From positions 1 to 17,095 of IMG/VR virus record IMGVR_UViG_2778261641_000010: a DNA stretch of 17,095 nucleotides, one strand, 5' to 3'. Shown piece after piece: positions 1 through 16,652 of this stretch. Each line of letters opens with the position of its first letter. Within the stretch, counting starts at the first letter, position 1. This DNA is from a virus (taxonomy: Duplodnaviria > Heunggongvirae > Uroviricota > Caudoviricetes). Position numbers and translations under genes: made by a program. Under the pieces are notes generated by a model. It saw only the letters and a program-made list of their open reading frames with translations, was not told the DNA's origin and made no database searches.

Positions 1-17
1 TTGCAGGAAACGGTAAA
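1..17. other. Inner end of the partner (left) crossover site / terminal inverted repeat of the invertible segment, truncated by the window edge
   Basis: Bases 1..17 are the reverse complement of 3027..3043 (1 mismatch). Bases 1..9 (ttgcaggaa) would be the last 9 bp of an inverted 26-bp site whose remainder lies left of the window. Confidence 0.5.
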
Positions 18-954
18 TCAGGCTTCTGGCGCATTACAGAAAAACCAGAACGGCGCAGATATTCCAGGAAAAGATACCTTCACCAAAAATATTGGTGCCT
101 GCCGCGCATACAGCCCATGGCTGAATATTGGTGGCGATAGTCAGGTCTGGACAACCGCGCAATTTATTTCGTGGCTGGAGAGTCAGGGAGCATTTAACCA
201 TCCTTACTGGATGTGCAAAGGCTCATGGGCTTATGCAAATAATAAGGTCATTACAGATACAGGTTGCGGAAATATTTGTCTTGCAGGTGCTGTGGTGGAA
301 GTTATTGGCACTCGCGGCGCAATGACCATACGCGTTACTACGCCGAGCACGTCCAGCGGTGGCGGAATTACTAACGCTCAATTCACTTATATTAATCATG
401 GTGATGCTTATGCTCCTGGCTGGCGACGAGACTACAACACGAAAAACCAGCAGCCTGCATTTGCTTTAGGGCAAACAGGACGCAGGGTCGCAAATGATAA
501 AGCTGTTGGCTGGAACTGGAATAGCGGCGTTTATGATGCAGATATCAGTGGCGCATCGACATTAATCCTCCACTTTAATATGAATGCGGGGAGTTGCCCT
601 GCTGTACAGTTCCGCGTGAATTATAAAAACGGCGGTATCTTTTATCGTTCAGCGCGTGATGGTTATGGCTTTGAAGCTAACTGGTCAGAGTTTTACACCA
701 CAACCCGCAAACCCTCTGCGGGGGATGTTGGTGCATATACGCAGGCAGAGTGTAACTCAAGGTTTATTACAGGTATTCGCCTGGGCGGTCTGTCATCTGT
801 TCAGACATGGAATGGTCCCGGCTGGTCTGACAGGTCAGGTTATGTCGTTACAGGTTCAGTTAACGGAAACCGTGATGAATTAATTGATACAACACAGGCA
901 AGGCCAATTCAGTATTGCATTAATGGAACGTGGTATAACGCGGGGAGTATTTAA
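1..954 (+). CDS. Alternative tail-fibre C-terminal (variable) domain cassette, 5'-truncated by the window edge; currently not joined to the stf constant part
   Basis: Open frame from base 1 to the stop at 952-954. The first 17 nt (ttgcaggaaacggtaaa, encoding LQETVN) are the reverse complement of 3027..3043 inside stf with one mismatch, then the sequence diverges. The C-terminus ...[14 protein letters not shown] matches the stf C-terminus ...FRPIQKYINGTWYN. It is followed 2 nt later by a tfa-type gene. No start codon or RBS of its own, as expected for a silent cassette. Confidence 0.7.
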
Positions 955-956
955 TT

Positions 957-1490
957 ATGATGCACTTAAAAAACATTACTGCTGGCAATCCTAAAACGAA
1001 AGAACAATACCAGCTAACAAAGCAATTTAACATCAAATGGCTTTATTCAGATGATGGAAAAAACTGGTATGAGGAACAAAAGAACTTTCAGCCTGATACG
1101 TTGAAAATGGTCTATGACCGTAACGGCGTTATTATTTGTATTGAAAAGGATGTTTCAGCAATTAATCCAGAAGGCGCAAGCGTCGTTGAGGTTCCTGATA
1201 TTACAGCAAATCGCCGGGCTGATATTTCGGGTAAATGGATGTTCAAAGATGGCGTAGTGGTAAAGCGAACTTATACCGAGGAAGAGCAGAGGCAGCAGGC
1301 GGAAAATGAAAAGCAAAGCCTGCTACAGCTCGTCAGGGATAAAACCCAGCTATGGGACTCACAGCTACGGCTGGGCATCATTTCCGACGAGAATAAACAA
1401 AAATTAACCGAGTGGATGCTCTATGCGCAGAAAGTCGAATCTACAGACACTTCCAGCCTGCCAGTAACGTTTCCCGAACAACCTGAATGA
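957..1490 (+). CDS. tfa: Tail fibre assembly protein (Tfa/Mu U-like chaperone), partner of the silent fibre-tip cassette
   Basis: 177-aa ORF. The N-terminal ~110 aa ([22 protein letters not shown]...[19 protein letters not shown]) are near-identical to the minus-strand Tfa at 1519..2046, and the C-terminal ~60 aa are divergent. It starts 2 nt after the upstream fibre-tip stop. Confidence 0.8.
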
Positions 1491-1493
1491 GAC

Positions 1494-1520
1494 AAGGCCC
1501 GATAGCGGGCCTTAATTTTT
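1494..1520 (+). terminator. Hairpin terminator between the two convergent tfa genes
   Basis: aaggcccg-atag-cgggcctt forms an 8-bp GC-rich stem with a 4-nt loop, followed on the plus strand by aatttttatt and preceded by an A-rich run on the minus strand. It lies exactly between the convergent stops at 1490 and 1519. Confidence 0.55.
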
Positions 1521-2046
1521 ATTCAGGCTTTTGTGGCCATTCAGGATTTGCCGTATCCACACGGCTGACCAGAACACTGTAGCGTTCCCATGACTCCAGT
1601 CGTGCGCGTTCCTCATCCGTCGCCATATTCAGCCTGACGGCGCGTTCCAGTGGCTGAATAATGCTTTCTGCTTCGGAAAGTAACGCGGCCTTTTGTGATT
1701 CTGCCTGTTGTTGCTGCTCATCTGTCGTATAAATCCGTTTAACTACAGTTCCGTCCTTAAACATCCACTTCCCTGAATCATCGGCGCGACGATTGGCTGT
1801 TATATCTGGAATCTCAACGACACTAAAGCCTTCGGGATTAAGCGTTGAGGCATCTCTGGTGATAGCGACAATAATATTATTTTCATCGTAAACAATCTTT
1901 ATTGTGTCTGGCTGAAAGTTCTTCACTTCCTCATACCAGTTTTTTCCGTCTTCGGACCATAACCAGATAACATCAAAATTCTTTGTTAGCTGATATTGCT
2001 CTTTTGTTTTTGGATTACCTGACTTAATGTTCTTTAAATGCTGCAT
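1519..2046 (-). CDS. tfa: Tail fibre assembly protein (Tfa) for the currently expressed fibre tip
   Basis: 175-aa ORF. ATG at 2046 lies 3 nt after the stf stop, with AGGTG upstream. The C-terminal motif ...[27 protein letters not shown] is typical of lambda Tfa / Mu U-family chaperones. Confidence 0.85.
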
Positions 2047-2049
2047 AAC

Positions 2050-5000
2050 TTACACCTGCGCAACGTTATACCATGTGCCATTGATGTATTTTTGTATCGG
2101 CCTGAAGATGGCTTCATCATCGCCATCTACTTCACCAATGATTCTTAATCCGGTAATCGTGTGTCCGGCTTTTTCATAACGACCACCACGCGCCATCAAT
2201 TGAACAACACGTGTGCCAAGTCGGACATCTCTCACATAGCGTGAGTCAAAATTGCCATAATTTCCGGGAATAATTTGCGCACCGCAAAGCCAGTTACCGT
2301 TATTGTCCATGTACGCCTGACCATCGGTGCCATTGGCTGTCCTTGAGTTATTAATCATGTAGATGCCAAATTGCTTGTTCCCCAGTCCACCTATCATGAA
2401 CTTGCGGTCAGCGTGATTCTGGCGAAGCAACGCCTGAGCGCTATCAGTGTTAACTATATTTTTCCCAAAGATAGCGTTGTTATCGCGCATCTGAATCCAC
2501 ATACCATTACTGCTGTTAATAGCAAAACGGTCTGAAAGCGTCTCCCCTGAAACATTAAGGCCACGCCCCATCGAAACAGCGCCAGTAGCGTTATTAATCC
2601 ATAATGGCCTTAATCCGTTATAAGTCCCCATGTTGTCACCGGAGTTTGTCAACATGAAGTATGTATTTGAACCATCATTACGAATAAAGAATCCGTAATT
2701 ACCATAAGCAATACGTAGGCCGTTTGCTGATTTTGATATGACTTCGCCATTTACAATGGCATTGACAAGAACATACAAAGCATCCCATTTAAGATTCATC
2801 AGGTCTTTTGTTGTGGTGCTTTGTTTGCTTCTCCATTTGAAATATTCATTGCCGTTGTCGCCTGTTTCAAACCACATGTATGAATCAGTATCGCTGTCGG
2901 CATCATTTTTAAAACCAATCTTCGCCCAGTCAGTATTTCGAATCCAGGCAAGGATTGAGTCATTTTCAAAAGTAAGCCCGCCGGACAAGGTATCGCCTGT
3001 CTTTTGAACGGCGTTACCAGCCTTGTTTACCGTTTCCTGTAAACCGAGGTATTCGATAACGGCGGCAACGGTCGATTTCGCAAGAATATCCCGCCCGACT
3101 TTTGTCAGGGTTGCCAGGCTGGCGACATCATTCCCCGTAAAATACGGAAACCTGTCTGCCGCAGTAGCAAGCCCGGCCAGCGCCGTCAGGGTGGCATCTT
3201 TCGGTTGCTTACCCGCAAGCGCGTTAGTCATGGTGGTCGCAAAATTCGGGTCGTTTCCCAGCGCCGCCGCCAGCTCGTTCAGCGTGTTCAGTGCGTCAGG
3301 TGACGAATCTACAAGGGCGGCAATCGCAGCCATAACGAAAGCCGTGCTTGCGATCTGAGTATTGTTAGTACCTTTTGGCGCAGTTGGTGTTGTTGGTGTT
3401 CCGGTCAGCGCCGGACTGTTCAGGGGCGCTTTCTTGTTCGTTTCATCCATTACCACCTTTACAGCTTTCGATGTCGCGGCCAGTGTTTCAGACGTGCTGT
3501 TGGTGGCGCTACTGAGCTGGACAAGGCCTTTTCGCGTCGTGCTGGCATCCTGCGCAGTATATTTACCGTTAGCAAGATCATACGCGGCCTTTACTGCTTT
3601 CGGCGTTGCAGCCTGCGTTTCAGACGTGCTGTTGGTTGCACTACTAAGCTGAACCACACCTTTTTTCGTCGTGCTCGCATCCTCAAGCGCCACGGCGGAT
3701 GCAATATCCTCTGCCCGTTTTGCCGCTGTCTCAGCGCGCGTTGCTGCAGATTCCGCCGTACTTTTGCTCTGAGCTGCTGCCGTCGCACTACCAGCAGCCT
3801 CTGTCGCCTTCGTGGATGCCGTCGTGGCGCTGCCCTTCGCTGCTGACGCCTGTCTGGTCGCCTCATCTTTTGAAGCAGACGCCGATGAGGCCGATGACGC
3901 CGCCGAACTGGCGGACGATGCCGCTGCCGTTTTTGAGGATTCTGCACGGGTTTCCGACACTTTCGCGTTCGTTTCGGATGTCTTCGCTGCGGAAGCTGAC
4001 CTCGCTGCTGCCGTGGCCTGTTCAGTGGCTTCGCCAGCCTTCGTTGTGGCTGTTGAAGCGGATGATGCGGCGCTTTCTGCCGACTTTCCGGCAGCGGTGG
4101 CACTGGCTGAGGCCTGCCCGGCACTTGTTGACGCGGCACTGGCAGATGATGCAGCCGCTGTTTTTGAGCCTGCCGCAGCTGAGGCACTCTGTCCCGCTGC
4201 CGTTTCAGAAGACCTGGCGTTCGTCTCGGACGTCTTTGCCGCCTTCGCGGAATTTCCTGCCGCCGTTGCCGAGGAAGCGGCACTACTGGCGCTTGATGAT
4301 GCGTTCGTTTCTGATGATTTCGCTGCCTCTTTTGAGGCCGCCGCATCCCAGGCTGAGGTGGCAGCTTCTGACGCCTTTGTGGTCGCTGCGGATGCAGAAG
4401 TGGCTGCAGATTTTTGTGACGCTGCCGCATTCGTTTCTGACGTTTTCGCCGCACCGGCACTGGTAGCTGCCGCGCTTTTTGAGGACTCTGCAGCGGCAGC
4501 ACTTTTTGATGCTTCAGTAGCCTTTGTTGATGCCGTTCCTGCGCTGGAAGACGCTGACTGAGCCGACGTCGCGGCCTGCCCGGCTGATGTGCTGGCTGCA
4601 CGTGCTGAGCCTGCAGCATCAGTCGCATGGGTTGCCGCCTCACGGGCTGATGTGCTGGCATCACTGGCTGACTTCTTCGCGGCTGCCGTGTTCTGTGCCA
4701 CCACGGACGCGTTACGCGCCACCTCTTCCACCATCAGCTCAAAACGGCGCAGTGCCTCCGGACGGGCGTCATCCTCCGTCATGGCACCGAGAAAATCATT
4801 CAGCGTACCGGGTCGGGAATCTTCATACACTGTGATGGTCCCGGCATGTGACGGCGGGAATCCTTCCACCAACAGAATAACGCTGTACTGACCGTACTCA
4901 ACGTCCATACTGTAACGCCCGGCTTCATCCGGATTTTCAGATGCCAGCGTGTTCACCACCACCGTGGTACTGTTACGTTTTGCTTTCAGCTGGATTGTGC

Positions 5001-5058
5001 AGTTCTGTACCGGTTTTCCTGTTCCGTCTTTCAGTACACCTGAAATTTTTACTGCCAT
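2050..5058 (-). CDS. stf: Side tail fibre protein Stf: lambda-like N-terminal constant part, long Ala/Ser/Thr-rich repetitive shaft, invertible C-terminal tip
   Basis: 1002 aa from the ATG at 5058 (MAVKISGVLKDGTGKPVQNCTIQLKA..., which I recognise as the lambda Stf N-terminus), with a GGAG RBS 5 nt upstream. The GTG two codons further upstream abuts the RBS and is rejected. Phage tail-fibre repeat motifs (DASTTxKGxVQLSSATNSTSE) occur twice. A gix-like site lies in frame at 3034..3059. Confidence 0.85.
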   Translation of the reverse strand: MAVKISGVLKDGTGKPVQNCTIQLKAKRNSTTVVVNTLASENPDEAGRYSMDVEYGQYSVILLVEGFPPSHAGTITVYEDSRPGTLNDFLGAMTEDDARPEALRRFELMVEEVARNASVVAQNTAAAKKSASDASTSAREAATHATDAAGSARAASTSAGQAATSAQSASSSAGTASTKATEASKSAAAAESSKSAAATSAGAAKTSETNAAASQKSAATSASAATTKASEAATSAWDAAASKEAAKSSETNASSSASSAASSATAAGNSAKAAKTSETNARSSETAAGQSASAAAGSKTAAASSASAASTSAGQASASATAAGKSAESAASSASTATTKAGEATEQATAAARSASAAKTSETNAKVSETRAESSKTAAASSASSAASSASSASASKDEATRQASAAKGSATTASTKATEAAGSATAAAQSKSTAESAATRAETAAKRAEDIASAVALEDASTTKKGVVQLSSATNSTSETQAATPKAVKAAYDLANGKYTAQDASTTRKGLVQLSSATNSTSETLAATSKAVKVVMDETNKKAPLNSPALTGTPTTPTAPKGTNNTQIASTAFVMAAIAALVDSSPDALNTLNELAAALGNDPNFATTMTNALAGKQPKDATLTALAGLATAADRFPYFTGNDVASLATLTKVGRDILAKSTVAAVIEYLGLQETVNKAGNAVQKTGDTLSGGLTFENDSILAWIRNTDWAKIGFKNDADSDTDSYMWFETGDNGNEYFKWRSKQSTTTKDLMNLKWDALYVLVNAIVNGEVISKSANGLRIAYGNYGFFIRNDGSNTYFMLTNSGDNMGTYNGLRPLWINNATGAVSMGRGLNVSGETLSDRFAINSSNGMWIQMRDNNAIFGKNIVNTDSAQALLRQNHADRKFMIGGLGNKQFGIYMINNSRTANGTDGQAYMDNNGNWLCGAQIIPGNYGNFDSRYVRDVRLGTRVVQLMARGGRYEKAGHTITGLRIIGEVDGDDEAIFRPIQKYINGTWYNVAQV
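3034..3059. other. gix/cix/pix-family 26-bp recombination (crossover) site for a Gin/Pin-type serine invertase, embedded in stf
   Basis: ttcctgtaaaccgaggtattcgataa: imperfect dyad around a central GA, and from memory a ~23/26 match to Mu gixL (TTCCTGTAAACCGAGGTTTTGGATAA). It sits exactly where the two fibre-tip sequences stop being alike. It encodes ...IEYLGLQE... in the stf frame. Confidence 0.7.
3437..3700 (-). repeat. Tandem direct repeat (2 x 132 bp, imperfect) inside stf encoding duplicated phage tail-fibre repeat motif
   Basis: The block cagacgtgctgttggt(g/t)gc(g/a)ctact(g/a)agctg appears at ~3489..3520 and ~3621..3652, 132 bp (44 codons) apart. Encoded peptides are DASTTKKGVVQLSSATNSTSETQAATPKAV and DASTTRKGLVQLSSATNSTSETLAATSKAV. 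Confidence 0.7.
3700..4730 (-). repeat. Low-complexity Ala/Ser/Thr/Lys-rich periodic region of stf (fibre shaft) with recurring AAKTSETNA-type units
   Basis: The translation shows AAKTSETNAAAS / AAKSSETNASSS / AAKTSETNARSS / AAKTSETNAKVS units. All three frames of both strands are open over much of this stretch because of the GC-rich repetitive composition. Confidence 0.6.
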
Positions 5059-5067
5059 ATTCACTCC

Positions 5068-5096
5068 ACAAAAAAGCCCGCCTGAACCGGCGGGCT
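5068..5096 (-). terminator. Rho-independent terminator downstream of lom, immediately upstream of the stf RBS
   Basis: Minus strand AGCCCGCC-GGTTCA-GGCGGGCT (8-bp GC stem) followed by TTTTTTGTGG, running straight into the stf GGAG RBS and ATG. Confidence 0.7.
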
Positions 5097-5122
5097 GTCA
5101 TAACACTGTGTTACCTGGCTAA

Positions 5123-5722
5123 TCAGAATTTATAACCGACACCCACGATGAAACCGTCAGTGCGCCAGTCGCCACTGCCGGAACCTTCATAAGCAAGGTC
5201 AATGGCCACGGATTCGGTCGGGTTAAACTGCACGCCAGCCCCCCACGCCAGAGACGTGTTGCTGTGGCGACCGCCATCACTCCCGGTCAGCACATCGTGC
5301 GTTTTCCCCTTGTTGTCAGTTACGCGGAGATAATCCCCGGAGAACGTCGAAACACGGCTGTAAGCCACACCCGCCATCGCATAAGCACTGAACCATTCAT
5401 TCACGCGTACAGACGGCCCCGCCATCACGCTGAACCAGCGGTTACGCACTGAATCTTCATGCCAGCGGGTATCGCTGTAACGGGTAATCTGGCGATTCTT
5501 GTCTCCTGCATAGCTGAATGACGTCACCAGCCCCAGCGTGTCCGTAAATTCATAACGGTATTTCACGTTAATGCCCTTCAGGTCATCACTGCCTGGCATA
5601 TCAGTATGGGTCTGAAGATACCCGGCGCTTAGTGTGGACTGATGCTCTGCTGCGCTCGCTGGCGTACCAGCGGCAACCAGCCAGACTACTGCGGACAGAA
5701 TAACAGCACATAATTTACGCAT
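5123..5722 (-). CDS. lom: Lom outer-membrane protein (Ail/Lom/PagC/OmpX-family beta-barrel); lysogenic-conversion moron
   Basis: 199 aa. N-terminal signal peptide [29 protein letters not shown]-terminal ...[10 protein letters not shown] beta-barrel signature, and strong resemblance to lambda Lom as I recall it ([10 protein letters not shown]...[11 protein letters not shown]...[34 protein letters not shown]). RBS AGAGGT 5 nt before the ATG. Confidence 0.9.
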
Positions 5723-5743
5723 AATTACCTCTCGCTTTTCTGC

Positions 5744-5770
5744 AATAAAAAAGGCGCCATTTCTGGCGCC
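5744..5770 (-). terminator. Rho-independent terminator after J, upstream of lom
   Basis: Minus strand GGCGCCA-GAAA-TGGCGCC (7-bp stem, GNRA-type loop) followed by TTTTTTATT, about 20 nt after the J stop. Confidence 0.7.
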
Positions 5771-5789
5771 CGTATCTGGGTTATAAAAT

Positions 5790-8700
5790 TCAGCTAATCG
5801 TGATGCCTGCAGTGGCTTTCTTCATCACAACAACCAGCAAATCGCTGATACTTGCTGTGGGATACCAGTCATTTACCCACCATGCTGATACAGAAAACTC
5901 CAGTGTCATTACACCACTGCCTGCAGGCATATCAATAACACCCGTGTATATCAGCGTATTATCCAGAGCCGTTCGGTTATAAATTTCAGCCCCGTTTTTC
6001 TTCACTATCAGGCGGCATGACGAATAAGTATCGCTATTCTCCCGCTCATGTCTGGCACCGCTGAAAGCCACCGCTGGAATAACAATTTGCCGGTCAAACG
6101 GCTGATCGTCATAAACCCTGACGGTAATGGTCCCTGATGGCCACCGCTCCGGAGCACGGGAGTCCCGGGGGAAAGCTTTGCCCACTGTTTTAACGAGATC
6201 GCCTTCAATCTGGTTCGCGGACAGTTTTCCCAGAACCCGACAGTTCTCGTTAATCGTGACGTTGTTGAGCGTCCCGGAGTTCGCATTCACGTTACCGCTG
6301 ATATCGGCATTTTTCGCCGTCAGCCGCCCGTCCGGTGTCAGGGAAAATGCCGGAGGATTACCGCCGCTGGTAATGGTCGGAGCCGTCAGGCGTTTCAGGA
6401 ACACGTCGTTCATGAATATCTGATCGCCCTGACCAACAAACATTGGTCTTGTGTTGCCATTAGACGGATCAATAAACGCGATACGGTTAGCGGCAACCAG
6501 GAACTGGCTCAGTTTGCCTTCCTCCGTGTCCTCCATGCTGAGGCCAATACCCGCGACATAATGTTTGCCGTCTTTGGTCTGCTCAATTTTGACGCCCCAC
6601 ATGGCATTCCACTTATCGTTGGCGTCCTTCCACTCTTTCGAAAACTGCTCCAGTTTGCTGGCGTTATCTTCCGTCAGCTCAAAGTTTTCCAGTAGCTCCT
6701 TGCCGAGATGCGTTTTATTGATCAACCCTTTATAAAAATTCAGATAACCTTCCGCATCATCGCTCGCCCGACCGACGGCCTCCACAAATGCCGATTTACC
6801 AACGGTATTCACGCTGCGGATATAAAAGTAATAATCATAACCCGGCTTAATATTGCTACTGGCAGCTATCCAGTACAGCGCCGTGCCAAGATAGCGGGCT
6901 GTGGTTTCAACCTGCCTGATATCAGCAATCCGCTTTTCCGAGAACCAGAACTCAAACTGCACCGTCGGGTCATATACAGCCAGTTTCGGGACCGCTGTTA
7001 TCTGAAAATACCCTGGTATCAGTTCAATAGTGACAGGCGCTGCAGGTGCGGCAATCCGGAACGATACCGATGCCGGATCGCCCTGCTGCCCCCACGCATT
7101 TGCCGCCCGGACCGTCAGCGTGTAACGCCCCAGCGCCAGCTGCCTGAAGCGGTATGTGGTTTCCGTCGTCCGGACCGTGCTGACCAGCCGCTCACTGCCG
7201 TCATCCGCTGTTACGGTCAGACGGAGCAGGAAGCTCACGCCCTTCACCACCTTCGGCGTGTCCCAGCGGGCCAGTACCTGATATTCCCCGCTGTCTGCGG
7301 AGACTTCGGCGGTCAGATGCTGCACTGCTGGCGGCGTGACACCATTCACCGTGCCGCTCTGGTCGCCGTCAAAGTGCGCCCCGTTATCCACGATGGCTTC
7401 TTTTTCCGGTACATGCTGCACGGCGGTGATGGCATACGTGCCGTCGTCGTTCTCACGGATACTCACGCAGCGGAACAGGCGCTGGCGCAGCGTCGGCAGC
7501 TTCAGCCCCCATACGCTGTATTCAGCAACGCCGTCAGGAACACGGCTCACTTTCACCTTCACGCCGTCGGCGACGGACTGAACCTCCACGCTGACCGGAT
7601 TGCCACTTCCGTCAACCAGGCTTATCAGCGTGGTACCGGAGGATGGCAGCGTGATTTCACGGTCGAGCGTCAGCGTCCGGGTCTGGCTGTTCACCGCCAG
7701 CACACGACCACCGTTGCTGATACCGGCATAGTCATCATCGCAGATTTCAATGACATCGCCCGGTACATGGCGAAGCCCTTCAGCACCCACGCTGAAGTCC
7801 ACGGTCTGCGTTTCCAGCAGCTCCGTTTTAATCAGCCACAGCCCGGCGCGGTGTGCCTGCCCCCGGCTGGTACAGCCAAAGGCATCCATCTTCGTGACGT
7901 TACGACCGTAACGGGCAATGGCCTGCGTGTCCTCCACAAGCTCTGTTGCCGTCTCCCAGCCATTGTCCGGGTCAATCCAGTTCACCTCAACGGCATTATG
8001 GCGGTCCTTCAGGGCGCTGAAGCTGTAGCGGAACGGCGCGCCATCATCCGGCATCACCACATTACTGCGGTTATAGGTCCACACCTTATCCGACTGTCGG
8101 TCCTGCACGAACGTCAGCGTCTGCCCGTTCCATACCGGCATACAGCGCATCGCCGAGCAGAAATCACTGAGCACATCCCACGCCTTGCGCTGTGTGGTCA
8201 GGTACGCATTACAGGTGATGCGCGGCTCCGTGCCGCCAAAGCCGTCCGGCACTGACTGGTCGCAGTACTGGCCGATGACATACAGCGCCCATTTGTCCAC
8301 ATCCGCCGCACCAAGACGTTTCCCCATGCCGTAGCGCGGGTGGGTCAGCATATCCCACAGACACCAGGCCATGTTGTTGCTGTATGCTGGTTTTAACGTT
8401 CCGTCCCAGATACCGCTGTATTGTCGCGTCTGCGGGTTATAGTTCGACGGCACCTGCAGAATGCGCCCGCGAAGATGATAATTACGGCTCACCTGCTGGC
8501 TGCCGAACTGCTCCGAGTCCACCTGTACGCCGACCAGTGCCGTGTTCGGGTAGCACTGTTTCACATCGATGATCTCGGTGTATGACGACCAGAGCGTTTT
8601 GTTCTGCAGCTGGTCTGTGGTGCTGTCCGGCGTCATCCTGCGCATCCGGATATTGAACGGGCGCGGCGGCAGGTTATCCACCACCACCGAGGCCAGATAC

Positions 8701-9185
8701 TGCGAGGTGGTTTTGCCCTTAATGGTGATGTCTTTTTCCGTCACCCAGCCACCGTTACGCTGTATCTGAACCAGCAGGCGGACTTCCGACGGATTCCTGT
8801 CTCCCTTTGAGGTGGTTTCCACCAGTGCCTGTACACCGAAGGTAAAGCGCAGACGGTCGATGTTTGCCGACGTAATGGTACGGGTGATCGGCGTGTCATA
8901 TTTCACTTCCGTACCCAGCACCGTCTCGGAGCCGGAGGATTCAAACCCCTCCGGCGGTGTCTGCTCCTGCTCACCTGCCCGGAACACCACCGTGACACCG
9001 GCGATGTTGGTATTCCCTTCACTGTCCAGCACCGGCGTACTGTTCAGCAGCACGCTTTTTAATCCATCCACCGGACCTTCTATCGGCCCTTCGCTGATGG
9101 CATCGATCACACTCAGCAACTGCGTGGACTTCAGGTTATCCTTCGCTTCGCGCGGGGTATGCCCCTTACTGCTGCCTTTACCCAT
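5790..9185 (-). CDS. J: Tail tip / host specificity protein J (central tail fibre)
   Basis: 1131 aa. The N-terminus [45 protein letters not shown]... is the lambda J N-terminus as I recall it. The size and the position after I fit, and a GGAG RBS precedes the ATG. Confidence 0.9.
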
Positions 9186-9195
9186 TCCTCACGCT

Positions 9196-9227
9196 CCATA
9201 AACGACAAAACCGCCCGGAGGCGGTTT
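9196..9227 (-). terminator. Terminator-like hairpin between I and J
   Basis: Minus strand AAACCGCC-TCCG-GGCGGTTT followed by TGTCGTTTAT (interrupted U-tract), in the 60-nt I-J gap. Confidence 0.45.
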
Positions 9228-9245
9228 CACATAAAACATTTTGCA

Positions 9246-9893
9246 TCAGCGACCAATCACCACAACCTGACCACCGTCCCCTTCGTCTGCCGTGCTGATC
9301 TCCTGAGAAACCACCCGCGACCCCACGCGCATTTCACCGTACAGAACGGGCAGAACATTGCCCTGGGCAACCATGTTATCCAGTGAGGAGAAATAGGTGT
9401 TCTGTTTGCCGTTATCTGTACTTGCTGCCGTGGGCGTCCTGGCTTTCGGTGCCAGCATCTGCGCCACTCCGCCCAGGATCATACTGGCCCCTGCCGCATA
9501 CATGCCCGATAAAGCCGCGGCACCCAGCCAGCCTGCGGGGTTCCACCACGCCACCGCAAACAGCGCCGCACCCAGCACCGCCTGAAAAACACCGCCACTT
9601 TTGGCTCCCGCCAGACGCGGCACGATGTGGATCACTGCACCATTTGCCAGCGGCTCATTAAGACGGGCAGATAATTCGGTTTCACCTGCATCACGCCCGG
9701 CAATGCGCACCTGATACCAGCCGTCATTCAGTTTCTGACGAAACGCCGGGAGCTGTGTGGACAGCGCCCGGATGGCTTCAGCCCCCGTTTTCACACGAAG
9801 GTCGATGCGGCGGCCAAATCGTTGCAAATCCCCGTAAAGGCAGATGCGTGCCATGCCCGGTGACGCCAGAGGGAGTGTGTGCGTCGCTGCCAT
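9246..9893 (-). CDS. I: Tail assembly protein I (tail tip assembly, ubiquitin-like N-terminal region family)
   Basis: 215-aa ORF whose C-terminus is ...NTYFSSLDNMVAQGNVLPVLYGEMRVGSRVVSQEISTADEGDGGQVVVIGR. It lies between K and J as in lambda. Start uncertain: ATG at 9893 (GAGAGAGG ~11 nt upstream) or ATG at 9854; both overlap the 3' end of K. Confidence 0.8.
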   Translation of the reverse strand: MAATHTLPLASPGMARICLYGDLQRFGRRIDLRVKTGAEAIRALSTQLPAFRQKLNDGWYQVRIAGRDAGETELSARLNEPLANGAVIHIVPRLAGAKSGGVFQAVLGAALFAVAWWNPAGWLGAAALSGMYAAGASMILGGVAQMLAPKARTPTAASTDNGKQNTYFSSLDNMVAQGNVLPVLYGEMRVGSRVVSQEISTADEGDGGQVVVIGR

Positions 9894-10534
9894 TTGTCGG
9901 TATACCTCTCTCGTTTGCTCAGTTGTTCAGGAATATGGTGCAACAGCTCGCCGTCGCCGCAGTAAATGGCGGCATGATTCGGCACCGATGAACCAAAACA
10001 GCACAGCAGTACATCGCCCGGCTGCGCCGCTGACAACGGCACCTGATACAGCCCCGTTGCCTCCAGATTATCCAGATAGAGATTCTGGCCGTTACGCCAC
10101 CAGTCATCCTCACGATGAAAATCCGGCATCTCAATCCCCGCCAGATGGTAAGCGTCCCGGAACAGCGTGTAACAGTCCGTCACCCCGTGCTCAAAGCGTC
10201 GCCCGGTGAGATGCGGCACACAGCGGAACTTATGAATCGCCCCCCGGCAGACCAGCCACCAAGGCAAATCGCTCTGCACCTGCAGCCGCCTGTCAGCCTC
10301 ACTCAGCCAGGGCAGACCACCGGGGTGGCTGTGGACCAGCGCCACAATCTCACCCTGCATCTCTGCCCGCAGCCAGTCCTCCGGCGACATCCGGAAATAC
10401 GCCTCCGGCTCACCGGAGATATTCACGCAGGGAAAATATCTTTCCCCTTCCGGCGTTCTCACCACGAAGCCGCACGACTCCGCTGGCGCACATCGCCGGG
10501 CGTGCGCCAGAATCGCTGATTCTGTCTGTGTCAT
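9791..10534 (-). CDS. K: Tail assembly protein K with JAMM/MPN metalloprotease and NlpC/P60 domains
   Basis: 247 aa from the ATG at 10534 (MTQTESAILAHARR...), 4 nt after the L stop. Intact JAMM motif HSHPGGLPWLSEAD (H-x-H-x7-S-x2-D), then a Cys/His-containing NlpC/P60-like region (GVTDCYTLF...NHAAIY...HH). The 14 codons upstream in the ORF track lie inside L and are rejected. Confidence 0.85.
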   Translation of the reverse strand: MTQTESAILAHARRCAPAESCGFVVRTPEGERYFPCVNISGEPEAYFRMSPEDWLRAEMQGEIVALVHSHPGGLPWLSEADRRLQVQSDLPWWLVCRGAIHKFRCVPHLTGRRFEHGVTDCYTLFRDAYHLAGIEMPDFHREDDWWRNGQNLYLDNLEATGLYQVPLSAAQPGDVLLCCFGSSVPNHAAIYCGDGELLHHIPEQLSKRERYTDKWQRRTHSLWRHRAWHASAFTGICNDLAAASTFV

Positions 10535-10538
10535 GGGA

Positions 10539-11237
10539 TTACTGCGAAAGTTTGTTAATGGAAAGGAAGCCGCCAAAGTTGCCGACGTTATTGCGAAACT
10601 TACAGCCGCTCAGGCATTTGCTGCATTTATCCTTCGTGATATCGGACGTCGGCTGGTCATATTCATCCGCGACAGCCGGACCATGATAACCGCACTCATC
10701 ACCGCGATAGGTCCAGGTGCAGGTGTTGGCCAGCATGATGCGCCCCGGAAAAACAGCACCATCCGTTTCCGTCGGTGTGGAGAGCACAAAGGAGGCACTG
10801 ACCGCACTCAGTTCGCTGCACTGCTCAATGCGCCAGCGGCTGATCACCTCCTGCTCAGGATCGGCATCGCTGTTTCCGGTGACGAAGTTCACCGCATCCA
10901 GAAAACGGGCGTAAACCTTACGCCTGACCACCGTTCCGCCGACCAGACTCTGCAAATCTTCCACCATCCCGGTGACCATGCCGTGCAGATTAGAGACTTT
11001 CAGAGTTGGCCTGGCGCTGGCTCCTTTACCGTTCATCTCAAATCCGCTCCCCTGAATGGGATACGGCTGATACTGTCGCCCCTGCCAGGTGACCGGCTCA
11101 CCTTTTTCGTTCTGCTCATTACAGAAAAAATAACGCTCTCCGCCGACTTCTGTCAGATCGACTTCCCAGAGCACGACCAGCGCGGATTGCTCCGCTTTTG
11201 TACACTCATTCAGTGTTTCCTGCTGTATATCCTGCAT
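10539..11237 (-). CDS. L: Minor tail protein L
   Basis: 232 aa, lambda L-like length and position; contains a Cys cluster (C-x2-C ... CSKCLSGC). Its start overlaps the M stop. Confidence 0.88.
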   Translation of the reverse strand: MQDIQQETLNECTKAEQSALVVLWEVDLTEVGGERYFFCNEQNEKGEPVTWQGRQYQPYPIQGSGFEMNGKGASARPTLKVSNLHGMVTGMVEDLQSLVGGTVVRRKVYARFLDAVNFVTGNSDADPEQEVISRWRIEQCSELSAVSASFVLSTPTETDGAVFPGRIMLANTCTWTYRGDECGYHGPAVADEYDQPTSDITKDKCSKCLSGCKFRNNVGNFGGFLSINKLSQ

Positions 11238-11578
11238 CAGTGAGTGACCTCTTCAAAGGTACAGTTAAAATCGGTATACATGGCATTATCCGAAATGCTC
11301 CACTCCCTGCAGACAACCCGGACAGTCCTGTTGTGTTTTGGCGGACGCCACAAAAAAGCACGAATCCCGGCATGACGGGATAAAAAACTGTCCAGCGCGG
11401 CACGGGAATATTCATCTGTGACACGAAATACCGGTTTAAACGTTTTCAGATCCGCATTCAGACCACCAGCCCGTCGCTGTTCATATCCGTCACCAAACTT
11501 TACCGTAATAACTGATGGCTTTCGTGTCGTCTCCATCCCCTCACGGGGGATCCAGTTAAAAACTTCAGGCTCAGGCAC
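11237..11578 (-). CDS. M: Minor tail protein M
   Basis: Conserved FGDGYEQR and WRPP motifs as in lambda M (FGDGYSQR...). Preferred start is the GTG at 11578, which has AGGAGGA 7 nt upstream and gives ~113 aa; the alternative is the ATG at 11593. It overlaps the tape-measure stop (11571-11573) by a few nt. Confidence 0.78.
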   Translation of the reverse strand: MPEPEVFNWIPREGMETTRKPSVITVKFGDGYEQRRAGGLNADLKTFKPVFRVTDEYSRAALDSFLSRHAGIRAFLWRPPKHNRTVRVVCREWSISDNAMYTDFNCTFEEVTH

Positions 11579-14500
11579 TGTACAATCCTCCATCCCGACG
11601 CGATGACTGCATAATTGACACAACCCTGCTGTCGATCAGATCCACCAGCCCCCTGGCTGACTGCGTATCTATCTCGCCATTGCTCCCTTTATTCTGAATA
11701 CTGATGTGATACACGGGAGAATAAACAAATCCACCGCCACCATTCACATTGCCAATGGCTCTGACTCCAAGAGAGCCGTCCGCTGCCCGAGTCAGTGGCA
11801 TGATAGCTTCAGGCCCGGCCTCGCCCATCAGCCCGGCACCTTTCGCAAAAGCAAAATACGTCGGGGTATCCACAATGGTGTTACTGTAAGCACTCAAATT
11901 TGCCGATGTATAAACACCACCTTTTGCGTTTGCCACTGCACCGGAAAGCCAGTCGCCGACTGTACCAAGCCATCCTCCGGCACCGGACATGCTTTTGGAA
12001 AGTGACTTCAGCCCGTTAACGATGGCAGCGTTCATCAGAATTTTTGAAACTTCCTGGAGAATTGAACTCCCCCAGTTTCTCCAGTCCACAACATTTCCGG
12101 CCAGTGCATCGGAAATATTTGATACCAGCCCGTCCATAGTGGAAATGACAGCATCTGCCGCCTGCGAAGCATAATCAGTGGCACTGTCTGCCCAGTTCGT
12201 CAGCCCCTCCTGGAGTCCGGCATTCCAGTTACTGCGTAAAGCATCAGCCTTTGCATAATAATCCTGCTGATCGCTGAGACGCTCTTCCAGATATTTTTCA
12301 TTCAGCGATTTTTCCTGTTTCCACAGGGCTTCTTCAATTTCTCCGGCCTGATACTGTCTCAGCAGCTCGTTATTTTTCTGCTCAAACGCCTGCCGGATAC
12401 TCCACATTTCCTGGAGTCGTTCACGCATCCGTGAGCCTTCACCATATCCCAGCAACTGCGCGTCGTCAGATGCCCGGGCACTGGCATTACTGTCCGCCAG
12501 ACTGCTTTCATACGCGGCAAGCTGCTCACGAATCTTTTTCTGGTCGATGAGTGCCGCATTCTGTAAAAGCGTTTTTTTCTGCGCTTCTGACAGGGTTGAT
12601 AATTCGCCCTGACTGACCTGATATTTCATCTTAGCCAGTTCAGTATTCTGCCCTGCCAGTGCTATTTGTTCTTTTTGCTGTTTAATTAGCCGTTTATAAA
12701 TATCTTCTGTTTTTTCCGCTTCGGTCTTTTTATGCGCTTTGGGTTTATTTGCCTGGTTATTTCGCCAGGCATCCAGTGAGTTATTGATATAATTCTGTCT
12801 GGCTGTCTGATACGCCTCTCCCACAAAGCCGAGATCATCCGCAGCATAACCCAGTCGGGCACGCTCACGGGCTTCCCCCTTCAGGCGGGACAGAGCCAGT
12901 TCGCGCTCGCTGTTATTCAGTGCGGTCTGCTGTTTATCATCCAGGGTTGCCTGTGGTAGCCGTAATGGTGCATTCACCAGCCCCTGTCGCTGCTGAAGTA
13001 ATTCATTACCAAGCCCGAGAAGACGATTAAACTCGGTATGCTGCCCATTCATGATCAACAGGGACTGATACGCTTTGTTTTGTTCCGCCGCCTGTTGACG
13101 GATCAACGCCACCCGTCGCTCCTCCAGCCCGGCAAGCACATCCTGAATAGATTGCGCTTTGCCCTGCATTTGAGTGAGGCGAGACTGTTCAACTGCCAGT
13201 TGATTTGTTGCTTCTGCAAGCCCTTCTGTGACAGTTTTCACCGACGTCATATGGTTAATCATAAAACCGTTATCGGTTGTCCAGCCCGGGTTTGCCAGCA
13301 CATACTGATAGCCAGCAATTTTTTCCTGTAAGGATTTAATCTTACTTTTCTGCTCGTCAATTAACCTGTTTTGCTCATCAAGTGCCTGCCGCGTCTTTTC
13401 CTCATTATCTGACGCTTCAGGAAGCGACATTGCCGACGTTTTCTGGCGAATTTCGTCGATTGTTGCGGCATACTGGCGTGCAGATTCTCTGGCCTGCTCC
13501 TGATTCTGATACATCGTGTACCAGGCCGTCGCCCCCAGCATGACGAGTCCCGGCACACCACCAACCAACCCCAGCGCACCACTTAACAGACGACTCCCCA
13601 CTGACGTGACAGTATTCAGCGTTGTCTGTGCCGCTGTTCTGGCCGCAATATTACGGGTAAGTGACGCCTGGGCAGCTGTCAGCTTCGCTTCTGCTGCGGC
13701 CTGCCTTTCGGTACCGCGAGCAGCAACAACCGCCTGTTGCGCACGATAAACCGCCGCACGCGCCCTGGCGGTTGCTATCTGTGTCCCCCGAAGTTGCGCT
13801 TCAGCAAGAGCCACTTCGTTTCTGGCTGCAGTAATTAATCCGGCAGTTGCAGATCCAGCAGACGACGCCATATTGCCAAAATATCGGGCTACCCCGACGG
13901 CAACCAGTGCGCCAGCTGCAGCAGCCACGGTATCAATATTGTCTGCAACACCATTCAACACCCCGGTGAGTGTCTTTGTCACTCCGCTTGCCTCGTTCGC
14001 ACCACCAACCCAGGCCATAAAGGCGTTTTCAACTTTGGTTGCAGAGGATGAAACAGTATCAGGCATTGCTGCATATTCATCACGCAACGCCCCAAGCTGA
14101 CTAATCAGTGCAGGAACAACCTTATCGGCGGTCAGTTTTCCGTTATCCGCCATGGCTTTCAGATCCTTACGGGCAACACCCATTCCCGCAGCCAGCGCAC
14201 GAATAACACGATCGCCGTTCTCATTCACAGAGTTAAATTCTTCACCGCGCAGCACTCCCTGCGCCAGTGCCTGACTGAACTGCGTGATCACCGAACTGGC
14301 TTCTGCTGTACTGGCACCGGATAATTTCAGGCCCGTGGAGATCGCCTCGGTGACTTTCAGTACCTCCTCAGAACTGTAGCCATACTCCCGCATGGAAGCT
14401 GCAGAGCGGGCAAAAAGGCTGGCGTTATCAGAAAACGCCGTTCCCGTTCTCTGGCTGATTGCCATTAATTCACGTTGTGATACCTGAAAATCATCACTGG

Positions 14501-14816
14501 ACTGTGAAGCCTGCTTCAGGCGGGCATTTACTGAATTCCACTCATCGGCGAGAGAAATAAGATGACCGGTAGCAAAAGCTCCGGCAAATGCCCCCGCCAT
14601 ATTCAGTGCCGAAGATTTAGCTGTATTTATCTGATCCGTCACTTCTGCCAGTGCACGCCGCATTTCACGGGATGCAGCAGCGGACTGCCGGCCTCCGTTC
14701 TGCATGGTACGGTAGTAATCCTGCCCCATACGCGAAGCCCGGGAGATCTCTGACTGGAATGACCGGGAATTTGCCGAGATTTTAATAATCAGTTCACGTA
14801 ATGTCGCCACACTCAT
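11571..14816 (-). CDS. Tail tape measure protein
   Basis: 1081 aa, largely alpha-helical/coiled-coil-like composition (Ala/Gln/Leu/Glu-rich), with Gly-rich hydrophobic stretches. It lies between G/GT and M. GGAGA precedes the start (ATG at 14816 or the in-frame GTG two codons later). Confidence 0.9.
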   Translation of the reverse strand: MSVATLRELIIKISANSRSFQSEISRASRMGQDYYRTMQNGGRQSAAASREMRRALAEVTDQINTAKSSALNMAGAFAGAFATGHLISLADEWNSVNARLKQASQSSDDFQVSQRELMAISQRTGTAFSDNASLFARSAASMREYGYSSEEVLKVTEAISTGLKLSGASTAEASSVITQFSQALAQGVLRGEEFNSVNENGDRVIRALAAGMGVARKDLKAMADNGKLTADKVVPALISQLGALRDEYAAMPDTVSSSATKVENAFMAWVGGANEASGVTKTLTGVLNGVADNIDTVAAAAGALVAVGVARYFGNMASSAGSATAGLITAARNEVALAEAQLRGTQIATARARAAVYRAQQAVVAARGTERQAAAEAKLTAAQASLTRNIAARTAAQTTLNTVTSVGSRLLSGALGLVGGVPGLVMLGATAWYTMYQNQEQARESARQYAATIDEIRQKTSAMSLPEASDNEEKTRQALDEQNRLIDEQKSKIKSLQEKIAGYQYVLANPGWTTDNGFMINHMTSVKTVTEGLAEATNQLAVEQSRLTQMQGKAQSIQDVLAGLEERRVALIRQQAAEQNKAYQSLLIMNGQHTEFNRLLGLGNELLQQRQGLVNAPLRLPQATLDDKQQTALNNSERELALSRLKGEARERARLGYAADDLGFVGEAYQTARQNYINNSLDAWRNNQANKPKAHKKTEAEKTEDIYKRLIKQQKEQIALAGQNTELAKMKYQVSQGELSTLSEAQKKTLLQNAALIDQKKIREQLAAYESSLADSNASARASDDAQLLGYGEGSRMRERLQEMWSIRQAFEQKNNELLRQYQAGEIEEALWKQEKSLNEKYLEERLSDQQDYYAKADALRSNWNAGLQEGLTNWADSATDYASQAADAVISTMDGLVSNISDALAGNVVDWRNWGSSILQEVSKILMNAAIVNGLKSLSKSMSGAGGWLGTVGDWLSGAVANAKGGVYTSANLSAYSNTIVDTPTYFAFAKGAGLMGEAGPEAIMPLTRAADGSLGVRAIGNVNGGGGFVYSPVYHISIQNKGSNGEIDTQSARGLVDLIDSRVVSIMQSSRRDGGLYSA

Positions 14817-14826
14817 TCTCCGGACG

Positions 14827-14847
14827 AAAAAAACCGCCGAAGCGGTT
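14827..14847 (-). terminator. Short terminator/attenuator-like hairpin between GT and the tape measure gene
   Basis: Minus strand AACCGC-TTCG-GCGGTT (5-6 bp stem, UUCG-type loop) followed by TTTTTTT, then the GGAGA RBS of the tape measure gene. Confidence 0.4.
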
Positions 14848-14855
14848 ATGTTGAC

Positions 14856-15544
14856 TCACTGAGACACTATTAAAAGCGCGTTTTCCAGTCCGGCAAATGG
14901 ATCTGAGACGCCTTCTGTCTGCTCTTGTTCCCACTGAAGAAGCGCATCATTCAGTGGGACTTTGACACCCTGCGCACCGTAAACCGCAGAAACTATCTGG
15001 GCAGCCCGGATATCAGCCCGCTCGTCACCCAGCGGGCTGAACCTGTCAAATTCTGCCCACATCATGATTTCTGATGCGGACATTTCCCGGCGTAACTCTG
15101 ACAATGTGCGCCCCATCCTGAGCGCCAGCATCATCAGAAAACGCATCCCCGGAAGCTCTACTTTTTTTTAACCTCGCCGGCATCACTGATCAGTTCCAGA
15201 GACTGCCGAAGAAGCCGCGCATGCACCGGGCCATACACGGCAATCACCTGTTCACGATCATCCTCTGAAAATACAGGTTGCAGTCCGGTATCACACAGAA
15301 CATCAATGAACAGTTCAACATCTGCCTCCAGATTTCGGCGGGCGCGCTCCGCAACGGATAACGGTGTCTCATCATCTTTTGCTTTAACGATCTCCTGCCA
15401 GCGCAACCAGGCTTCTGCAGAAGGTTCCCGTAATACAACCGTTGCCCCTTCCCATTCAGGCACATCAACAGTTTTATGGCGAAACCCCGACATCGTTGCC
15501 AGTGCCAGATTGCGGATATTTTTAGTCATCACATCTATCCTCAT
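14856..15544 (-). CDS. Tail assembly chaperone GT fusion produced by programmed -1 ribosomal frameshift
   Basis: The ORF at 14856..15146 has codon phase exactly -1 relative to G. The G frame ends ...GTT AAA AAA AAG TAG, so a slip on A_AAA_AAG (15161..15167) continues K-V-E-L-P-G-M-R-F-L... to the stop at 14856. The downstream ORF has no plausible independent RBS. Confidence 0.65.
15158..15544 (-). CDS. Tail assembly chaperone G (0-frame product)
   Basis: 128 aa; the ATG at 15544 overlaps the major-tail stop (TAATG). An alternative start is the ATG at 15529, with GAGGA 8 nt upstream. Position immediately before the tape measure gene and the acidic C-terminal half fit a G-type chaperone. Confidence 0.75.
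   Translation of the reverse strand: MRIDVMTKNIRNLALATMSGFRHKTVDVPEWEGATVVLREPSAEAWLRWQEIVKAKDDETPLSVAERARRNLEADVELFIDVLCDTGLQPVFSEDDREQVIAVYGPVHARLLRQSLELISDAGEVKKK
15161..15167 (-). promoter_or_regulatory. -1 programmed ribosomal frameshift slippery heptamer A_AAA_AAG, directly followed by the 0-frame stop TAG
   Basis: Run of 8 A then G on the minus strand (plus strand c-tttttttt-a at 15161..15170); A_AAA_AAG is a classic slippery sequence (e.g. dnaX). Confidence 0.65.
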
Positions 15545-16248
15545 TAACTGACGGTAACAGTGCAGGAAGTGGAGGTCACCTTGTTAACAGGGCTTGCTGA
15601 ATCAGAAATCTCGCAGGTATACGCACCGGCATCACCTGATGCTGCTGATGCCTTACTGAATGTTGCCGCCGTCTGTCCGGAAACAGGAGAACTACCTTTC
15701 TTCCAGACATAAGAATAAGGCGGCACACCACCGGCAGCCTCAACCACCATTTCGAGTTTCGCTCCGGCAGAAACCTGCAGCGTGCTGTTTAAATCGACCT
15801 TCACTTTCAGCGGCTCTGTCGTCAGCACAGGTTTACCTTTCAGGCGCAGGGAAAACGTTGCAGCCACAACACCATTAGTTCCTGCAGACCAGGTATGCTG
15901 ACGCACCTCTGCCATAAAGGTAAATCCGTTGCCTGACGGAAAAATAACTTTAAAGCCATACGTGGTGTCATTGTCATAGGCACTGCGCAACGCGTTCTGG
16001 GCAGCATTGAGGTAAAAGTTGCCTGACATGGAAATCTCTGACGCGGCACCAAGGCCGTTAATATTTTCCTGCTCAACAGAACACAGCGTGGTGACATCAA
16101 TATCCTGCTTTTGTCCTGCGGTAAACTGCACCTCTTTGATTGTACAGCTCAGGCCAAGATAGCTGGCAGAATCCAGGGTTTCTGCTGTTACCGGTGCAGA
16201 CGAAATCATAATTTTCGTCAGTTGCGAACGCTCAAAATTAGAGGACAT
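15544..16248 (-). CDS. Major tail protein with C-terminal Ig-like (Big_2-type) domain
   Basis: 234 aa from the ATG at 16248 (MSSNFERS...), with AGGAGA 5 nt upstream. The ORF-track 5' extension runs through a terminator hairpin and is rejected. The C-terminal ~80 aa (...VSAGAKLEMVVEAAGGVPPYSYVWKKGSSPVSGQTAATFSKASAASGDAGAYTCEISDSASPVNKVTSTSCTVTVS) resemble an Ig-like decoration domain. It sits just upstream of G/GT. Confidence 0.8.
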   Translation of the reverse strand: MSSNFERSQLTKIMISSAPVTAETLDSASYLGLSCTIKEVQFTAGQKQDIDVTTLCSVEQENINGLGAASEISMSGNFYLNAAQNALRSAYDNDTTYGFKVIFPSGNGFTFMAEVRQHTWSAGTNGVVAATFSLRLKGKPVLTTEPLKVKVDLNSTLQVSAGAKLEMVVEAAGGVPPYSYVWKKGSSPVSGQTAATFSKASAASGDAGAYTCEISDSASPVNKVTSTSCTVTVS

Positions 16249-16260
16249 ACTCGTCTCCTG

Positions 16261-16287
16261 AAAATAAAAAACCCGCCAGCGGCGGGT
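16261..16287 (-). terminator. Rho-independent terminator-like hairpin in the leader of the major tail gene
   Basis: Minus strand ACCCGCC-GCT-GGCGGGT (7-bp GC stem) followed by TTTTTATTTT, then AGGAGA and the ATG of the major tail gene. Confidence 0.6.
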
Positions 16288-16307
16288 GGGTAAAATCATT
16301 AACGACC

Positions 16308-16652
16308 TCAGGCTATTACCTGAAATTCAAGCGTGGATCTGCTCAGACGGGAATCAGGATCATAACCCTGAGTTTTAGAAATAACGGAAGGTGCAAGTTG
16401 CCTTACCGCATCAAGCGCCTGCTCACGGATATCATCTGCGTCATCAGGTACTGTTGCCCAGACATCGATCTGCACGGTAATTCTGGATTCAGCCTGACCA
16501 TCAAGCACATCAGACGCAGTGTCAGACACCACAGAAAATACCAGCCATGGCGGAGATACCGCAGGCTTTCCCTCCGTCAGCGGGACCACATAAGGATAAA
16601 CCTGTCCTCCGGCCAGTTGAGACAGCAGGGAATACAGTGTGGTCTCTCTCAT
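16308..16652 (-). CDS. Tail completion / tail terminator-type protein (DUF3168-like; lambda U position)
   Basis: 114 aa; its ATG overlaps the stop of the upstream gene (ATGA). The call rests on size and position immediately before the major tail gene. Confidence 0.65.
   Translation of the reverse strand: MRETTLYSLLSQLAGGQVYPYVVPLTEGKPAVSPPWLVFSVVSDTASDVLDGQAESRITVQIDVWATVPDDADDIREQALDAVRQLAPSVISKTQGYDPDSRLSRSTLEFQVIA

Follow-up and report, generated by a model that had tools for sequence, protein, structure and literature searches.

Can the side tail fibre gene (stf) near the left end of the phage record IMGVR_UViG_2778261641_000010 exchange the tip of its product by DNA inversion, and if so, which recombinase would turn the segment? 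We analyzed positions 1 to 17,095 of this IMG/VR record, and this whole stretch of 17,095 nt is called the window below. An earlier sequence-only reading had proposed that a Mu G-like invertible cassette for the fibre tip is grafted onto a lambda-type side tail fibre protein (Stf), with the invertase gene just left of base 1. The explanation that we now regard as quite probable is that a Mu G-type segment sits on the lambda-type Stf as an orphan. The invertase in cis is dead, and the segment would be flipped only by an enzyme supplied in trans.

Structure of the invertible cassette

Window positions 1..3059 form a mirror-image cassette, in which a silent fibre tip and a tail fibre assembly gene (tfa) on the plus strand face a second tfa and the expressed tip on the minus strand. 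The cassette is joined in frame to a lambda-type Stf. The map of open reading frames (ORFs), the Pfam domains and the collinearity with Mu G all bear out the Sc-[Sv-U-U'-Sv'] architecture that had been proposed. The alignment with the Mu G segment is collinear, with 91.9% nucleotide identity over 3,082 nt, and the nucleotide identity to the segments of D108, P1, P7 and D6 is 92-95%. Judged by this conservation, the cassette and the Mu G / P1 C segment are true orthologues.

The stf gene (2050..5058, minus strand) encodes 1002 aa with the Pfam domains phage_tail_N (E 1e-71), Phage_fiber_2 and Gp34_trimer. Its variable and now expressed C-terminal tip (2050..3045, minus strand, residues ~672-1002) is of the Mu Sv type, and Stf residues 667-1000 are 88% identical to residues 166-502 of Mu S. 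The tfa of this expressed tip (1519..2046, minus strand, 175 aa) is of the Mu U type, with 95% amino acid identity to Mu U and a Caudo_TAP domain (E 8e-37). On the plus strand, the silent alternative tip (1..954, 317 codons) is of the Mu S'v type; it contains a gp37_C domain and has 96% amino acid identity to the variable part of Mu S'. The silent-tip tfa (957..1490, plus strand, 177 aa) is of the Mu U' type (97% amino acid identity to Mu U'; Caudo_TAP E 6e-37). As in the Mu G family, two alternative fibre C-termini are mirrored, and each adjoins its own chaperone (S'v with U', Sv with U). This supports the suggestion that inversion would swap a tip together with its cognate chaperone. The two tfa genes converge on a 28-nt spacer, where a GC hairpin with a T-run (1494..1513, plus strand) resembles a terminator by consensus match only.

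The silent tip has no start codon or promoter of its own and would be expressed only after inversion. Its ORF is open from base 1, and the earlier reading had named a plus-strand fibre ORF running far to the left from its own start as an outcome that would speak against a switch. On the source contig, the frame instead meets an in-frame stop 3 codons left of base 1, inside the left crossover site, and the ORF is therefore not an independent gene. Gene callers treat this tip (window 1-954) as a free-standing gene, placing its start at the first base (TTG) or at an ATG further inside, and label it 'phage tail protein', 'tail fiber protein' or 'hypothetical protein'.

Crossover sites at both ends of the segment

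The terminal inverted repeat that had been noticed in the sequence is real. However, the partner of the first 17 nt is at 3026..3042 and not at 3027..3043, and 16 of the 17 bases match (G3 versus A). With at most one mismatch, the 17-mer occurs 2 times in the window, against 0.00 occurrences expected from 200 shuffles. The repeat corresponds to the inner portion of a Gin-type crossover site of 26 bp. On the right, this site reads TTCCTGTAAACC-GA-GGTATTCGATAA (3034..3059), matches Mu gix at 24 of 26 positions and has its central dinucleotide at 3046..3047. P2-like prophages having intact invertases carry the identical site sequence. The left site, TTATCTAAAACC-TC-GGTTTGCAGGAA (-16..9), also matches Mu gix at 24 of 26 positions, with its centre TC at -4..-3. 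This complete site, which the sequence-only reading had suggested looking for by leftward extension, was found on the source contig, which reads TTATCTAAAACC-TC-GGT and then TTGCAGGAA. The window begins after GGT, at site position 18, and window positions 1..9 (TTGCAGGAA) are the last 9 nt of the inner half of the site. The complete site is also present in related loci.

In Mu, the centres of TTATCCAAAACC-TC-GGTTTACAGGAA and its inverted partner are the annotated boundaries of the G segment. In the present locus, the central dinucleotides TC (left) and GA (right) are reverse complements of each other, giving the two inverted 26-bp sites with matching centres that mark the Mu G family. Each half-site variant is also present in prophages with intact invertases. 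The motif LQETVN is found at Stf residues 673-678 and, in the plus-strand ORF, at codons 1-6. Relative to the repeat, both are read in the same frame, and the two sequences then diverge, as had been observed. Inversion in silico at both central dinucleotides produced an in-frame 989-aa protein (Stf'). The proposed crossover at the LQETVN junction is supported, and the constant N-terminal part is fused in frame to either tip, as in other members of the Mu G family.

The window starts inside the left crossover site, and we considered an assembly break caused by heterogeneity of inversion as the reason. This was rejected, because the window was cut at gene boundaries from a contig of 247 kb on which host genes follow leftward.

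The source prophage and its invertase remnant

The source contig, NLVW01000004.1 (GCA_002513175.1), was found by an exact match to the Stf protein and was used for the leftward extension; exact 120-mers from the window had no match in the viral or the genome contig set. Its reverse complement has 0 mismatches to the window over 15,058 comparable nt. The flanking host genes potB, potA and pepT are 98.5% identical to Escherichia coli, and the window is part of an E. coli prophage integrated next to potB. At the other side, the contig ends 241 nt beyond the right edge of the window, upstream of an HK97-gp10-like tail gene. A Logan contig from SRR3957065, a run in which the tail region is identical, also stops close to this point. 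This break is probably due to a repeat common to other prophages.

The invertase gene (minus strand) lies where it had been predicted, beginning 71 nt to the left of base 1, but it is not functional and consists of a 64-codon remnant. The remnant is identical to Gin at 62 of 64 residues, Ser9 included. Its codon 65 is TGA, and Gin, PinE and the P2-like enzyme have Arg there. Pin-like sequence reaches to about residue 77, then runs into a C-terminal tfa fragment and then into host DNA, and potB is ~0.6 kb from the remnant. A deletion has thus removed the catalytic domain's second half together with the E-helix and the helix-turn-helix domain. The adjacent functional serine invertase gene of ~190 aa that belongs to the Mu G family is absent here, whereas the P2-like and Mu-like copies of the cassette have intact 193-199-aa invertases at the matching place. 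The element is a member of the family by descent and as a substrate, and is not an autonomous system. The dead-gin junction is widespread: a 326-nt query across it matched 535 of the 5,426 complete E. coli genomes (~10%). In their annotations, the stub-tfa scar, at about -330 to -71 in window coordinates, appears as a 'recombinase family protein' next to a partial tfa.

The Fis-dependent recombinational enhancer of such systems lies classically inside the 5' part of the invertase gene. Wild-type invertases require the Fis-bound enhancer in cis (PMC4513852), and the Hin enhancer is located ~100 bp from a hix site (PMC3798978). Over its first ~190 nt, the stub hardly differs from Mu gin (99/100 in alignment columns 101-200), and therefore it probably keeps the Fis-bound enhancer.

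Both orientations in related prophages

We searched the complete E. coli genomes for lambda-type loci with a 5.4-kb query made of the remnant, the cassette and Stf, requiring at least 80% coverage. The direct form of the query was found in 29 genomes and the in-silico inverted form in 38. Every listed match begins at query base 1-3, in the tfa fragment beyond the stub. Since the lesion is outside the segment and is common to both orientation classes, the inversions post-date the death of the invertase. The 1-kb junction queries over dead-gin loci (131 versus 100 genomes) were not used, because they are confounded by loci with intact invertases.

In the strains EC31 and EC12, the segment is found in opposite orientations. 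Both carry the prophage at a common prfC-proximal locus, and both encode the same 64-aa remnant protein (WP_001378636.1). When the 3,055-bp segment of EC31 was inverted in silico at the site centres, the locus became the same as that of EC12 over 15,397 nt except for 20 single-nucleotide polymorphisms (SNPs), with 0 differences within the segment. All 20 SNPs are in a ~900-nt stretch of J (positions 12814-13711 of the compared loci), and this cluster looks like a recombination patch in the tail-tip protein. PSS-13 and PSS-16 are a second pair with inverted orientation, as seen by blastn. In ET358 and PSS-13, the lambda-type stf is split into two ORFs by a frameshift or stop in the shaft and the cassette is intact; such loci are at different stages of decay. 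Where the cassette is beside intact invertases, in P2-like and Mu-like prophages, both orientations are present too. Both orientations of the segment are thus observed in its P2-like, Mu-like and lambda-type relatives, the last with a dead invertase.

The segment therefore still flips in this group of prophages, and an invertase provided in trans is the parsimonious cause; other prophage switches offer precedents. The P segment of e14 is inverted by PinQ, by PinR and by PinE, and PinE also inverts Mu G (PMC12529663). Constant flipping in culture is described for the invertons of Mu and P2-like prophages (PMC4272514). Sequence corresponding to the lost 3' half of the invertase gene was present in 3,173 of the 5,426 E. 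coli genomes, and in 1,778 the match reached 80% coverage or more.

Proposed mechanism

Positions 1..3059 of the window make up nearly the whole of an invertible Mu G / P1 C-type segment, 3,052 bp long, which occupies the 3' end of stf. We propose that a DNA invertase of the serine type (Gin/Pin/Cin/Hin family) would cleave the two sites at the central GA/TC (-4..-3 and 3046..3047) and that the segment would then rotate, joining the constant Stf residues 1-671 to either tip. The present state pairs the Sv-type tip with the U-type chaperone, and the flipped state would give the 989-aa Stf' with the S'v-type tip and the U'-type chaperone. Since the cis invertase is dead, the segment would be an orphan substrate dependent on an enzyme in trans. 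It would flip only when a compatible invertase is provided by a co-resident P2-like, Mu-like, e14, Rac or Qin-type element.

The swap would alter the receptor specificity of the side fibres. The G(+) and G(-) particles of Mu adsorb to different enterobacterial lipopolysaccharide types. By analogy with Mu and P1 biology (Grundy & Howe 1984, as cited in PMC4272514), inversion of the present segment would likely change host range or adsorption specificity.

Origin of the module and the lambda-type tail region

The lambda-type N-terminus that had been assigned to Stf is well supported by the PF08400 match (residues 1-134, E 1e-71). The N-terminal part of the protein (3691..5058, minus strand) consists of this phage_tail_N domain and an Ala/Ser-rich repetitive shaft. 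The lambda-type tail module to which it belongs includes lom (5123..5722, minus strand; Pfam Ail_Lom) and the tip attachment protein J (5790..9185, minus strand; Pfam GpJ domains). The gene order is Z-U-V-G-T-H-M-L-K-I-J-lom-stf-tfa, and the domains expected of a lambda-type Stf/Tfa region (PF08400, Ail_Lom, GpJ and Caudo_TAP) are all present.

The point where this lambda-type part was joined to the cassette is not the crossover site. The homology to Mu stops at ~3066, about 7 nt outside the right site, whereas the fibre genes of P2-like prophages remain 93-95% identical out to ~3683. Lambdoid phages match the window at 92-93% nucleotide identity from ~3458-3590 to 9200. The joint to the lambda-type part is near 3690, in the shaft. 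The constant distal shaft beside the crossover site (3047..3690, minus strand) is of the P2-fibre type, with 93-95% nucleotide identity to the fibre genes of P2-like prophages. Because the P2-type identity continues to ~3683, past the end of the Mu homology, the module that was joined consists of the distal shaft, the G segment and gin. On the basis of this identity, the immediate donor was probably a P2-like prophage. The isolated phages listed with 80% or more of the cassette covered are Mu-like (Mu, D108, SfMu and PhiR68_1), P1-like (P1, P7, D6 and RCS47) and P2-like (P88). Among these listed matches from a collection of 50,697 phage records, there was no lambdoid isolate with a G-type cassette.

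Several other features were seen in this region. The distal shaft contains a 132-nt direct repeat (82% identical; window 3456-3551 and 3588-3683), which corresponds to two Phage_fiber_2 repeat units. The same 132-nt unit was matched at four positions, 132 nt apart, in the fibre gene of one P2-like prophage, and shaft length seems to vary between phages by the copy number of this repeat. The middle of stf (window 3760-4700) has many degenerate Ala/Ser-rich repeats with spacings that are multiples of 21 nt. Such a low-complexity shaft is common in Stf proteins of the lambda type. In the interval from lom to the beginning of stf, the stf coding strand carries a strong terminator-like hairpin (window 5075-5096, minus strand) of 8 pairs, 7 of them G-C, followed by TTTTTT. 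If it acts as a terminator, stf expression would need read-through or antitermination. A 515-aa antisense ORF within the J gene (window 6708-8255, plus strand) is most likely spurious.

Comparison with known inversion systems

The class of switch is a textbook one, represented by Mu G, P1 C and e14 P. With the G segment of Mu and D108 (Gin, gix), the present locus shares the order Sc-[Sv-U-U'-S'v]-gin, a nucleotide identity of 92-94.5% over the whole segment, the 28-nt spacer between the tfa genes, sites matching at 24-25 of 26 positions and an almost identical 5' end of gin. It differs in its constant part, where a lambda-type Stf (with PF08400, and encoded after J and lom) takes the place of Mu Sc. 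It also differs in gin, which is here the 64-codon remnant with no com/mom after it. The C segment of P1, P7 and D6 (Cin, cix) has a central ~3 kb that is 92-95% identical to the window cassette, but the element that carries it is a plasmid-prophage myovirus. In P1, the C segment is longer, with large inverted repeats of 0.6 kb.

The invertons of P2-like E. coli prophages, such as those of phage P88 and of enteropathogenic E. coli (PMC4272514), have a cassette with 92-96% nucleotide identity and an identical right site. They also have in common with the window ~620 nt of distal shaft outside the segment. They are located on a myovirus baseplate module (gpI, gpJ, gpW and gpV), however, and retain an intact invertase of 195-199 aa.

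The e14 P segment, with PinE and the trans-acting PinQ (Qin) and PinR (Rac), resembles our locus as a tip-plus-chaperone inversion in an E. coli prophage that receives enzymes from other prophages (PMC12529663, PMC4272514). The Rac and Qin prophages further resemble it in that lambda-type stf/tfa genes are linked with pin genes. Unlike our segment, the P segment is 1.8 kb long and has other sites and unrelated or very distant tips (26% between the 177-aa Tfa and TfaP), and e14 retains an intact pinE. Rac and Qin have the enzyme without the cassette, whereas our locus has the cassette without the enzyme.

The sequence-only reading had stressed the lambda-like Stf backbone as unusual. This novelty was overstated. 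The arrangement of Stf, cassette and remnant is present in at least 67 complete E. coli genomes, and a lambdoid phage, LLS, with lambda-like tail proteins, two opposed side tail fibre genes and a DNA invertase has been published (PMC12315714). Tip switching in LLS was proposed to occur as in Mu and P1 (PMC12315714). The mechanism is not new. What may be new is that a true Mu-type G segment is carried on a lambda-type Stf in many E. coli prophages as a trans-dependent orphan.

Evaluation of alternative explanations

A frozen relic is an unlikely alternative. No compatible invertase would then be expressed in the source strain, and the cassette would be locked in the Sv/U orientation and decaying. 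The dead cis invertase agrees with such a relic, as does the finding that the invertase 3' half reaches 80% coverage in only 1,778 of the 5,426 genomes. The stf gene is broken in some relatives, and the source prophage itself may be defective, its contig ending inside the prophage. Yet the source retains undamaged copies of the four cassette ORFs, of both crossover sites and of the presumed enhancer-bearing stub. An exact inversion distinguishes prophages that are otherwise nearly identical and share the lesion, and the two orientation classes have similar frequencies (29 versus 38). These orientation data could be read in another way if homologous (RecA) recombination, or replacement of the cassette from another prophage, had produced the polymorphism instead of site-specific inversion. 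The inverted repeats do share ~25 identical bp, near the minimal length for RecA, and P2-like prophages share flanks on both sides of the cassette (the gin 5' end and ~620 nt of shaft). We nevertheless consider this very unlikely, since the EC31 and EC12 segments have 0 differences in 3,055 bp, compared with 4-8% for the cassettes of other prophages, and the breakpoints are inside bona fide gix-type sites. That the two orientations are almost equally frequent, and that sister strains differ, also implies frequent events. A self-contained switch with its own functional ~190-aa invertase directly left of base 1 would have fitted the invertase start at the predicted place 71 nt away, the complete left site and the intact 193-199-aa enzymes beside P2-like and Mu-like copies. 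On the window-identical contig, the ORF stops at codon 65 and is followed by the tfa fragment, with potB ~0.6 kb off. This possibility is therefore refuted for the contig, and would revive only in the far-fetched case that the assembly is wrong at that point.

The flipped fibre proteins might instead serve the bacterium, for example by blocking phage adsorption, and not the host-range switching of the prophage. In e14, inversion driven by PinQ leads to StfE2, a protein that blocks the adsorption of T2 (PMC12529663), and a dead-gin junction kept in ~10% of E. coli genomes would suit a domesticated function. The present locus has a full-length Stf within a complete lambda-type tail module, unlike the truncated genes of e14, and we consider domestication improbable. 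The trans-dependent orphan segment remains the explanation that we favor, and some observations weigh against it. The head and early regions of the source prophage are on other contigs. Flipping is shown by the comparison of relatives, and in the source strain itself it is a prediction. Retention of the enhancer is suggested by analogy and sequence identity with Mu gin. In addition, stf is broken in ET358 and PSS-13, so such cassettes also decay. A more speculative extension, to which we give a low probability, is that gin-less G cassettes are kept as orphan substrates in a cross-prophage inversion network. One resident invertase, encoded by a P2-like, Mu-like, e14, Rac or Qin-type element, would then co-switch the fibres of several prophages, or the host would use the flipped fibres, for example to block adsorption in the manner of StfE2, and the 190-nt stub would be preserved for its enhancer.

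Implications for prophage tail fibres

These results bear on how such loci are annotated and read. The stub and the silent tip are labelled separately in current annotations, yet the locus is one invertible fibre gene whose state is set by enzymes encoded elsewhere. Because of this dependence, the receptor specificity of a lambda-type prophage cannot be read from a single assembly. Differences in orientation between otherwise identical strains, such as EC31 and EC12, are phase variation and not misassembly. The locus is also a natural example of the exchange of a whole switch module, comprising the distal shaft, the G segment and gin, between myovirus-type and lambda-type tails.

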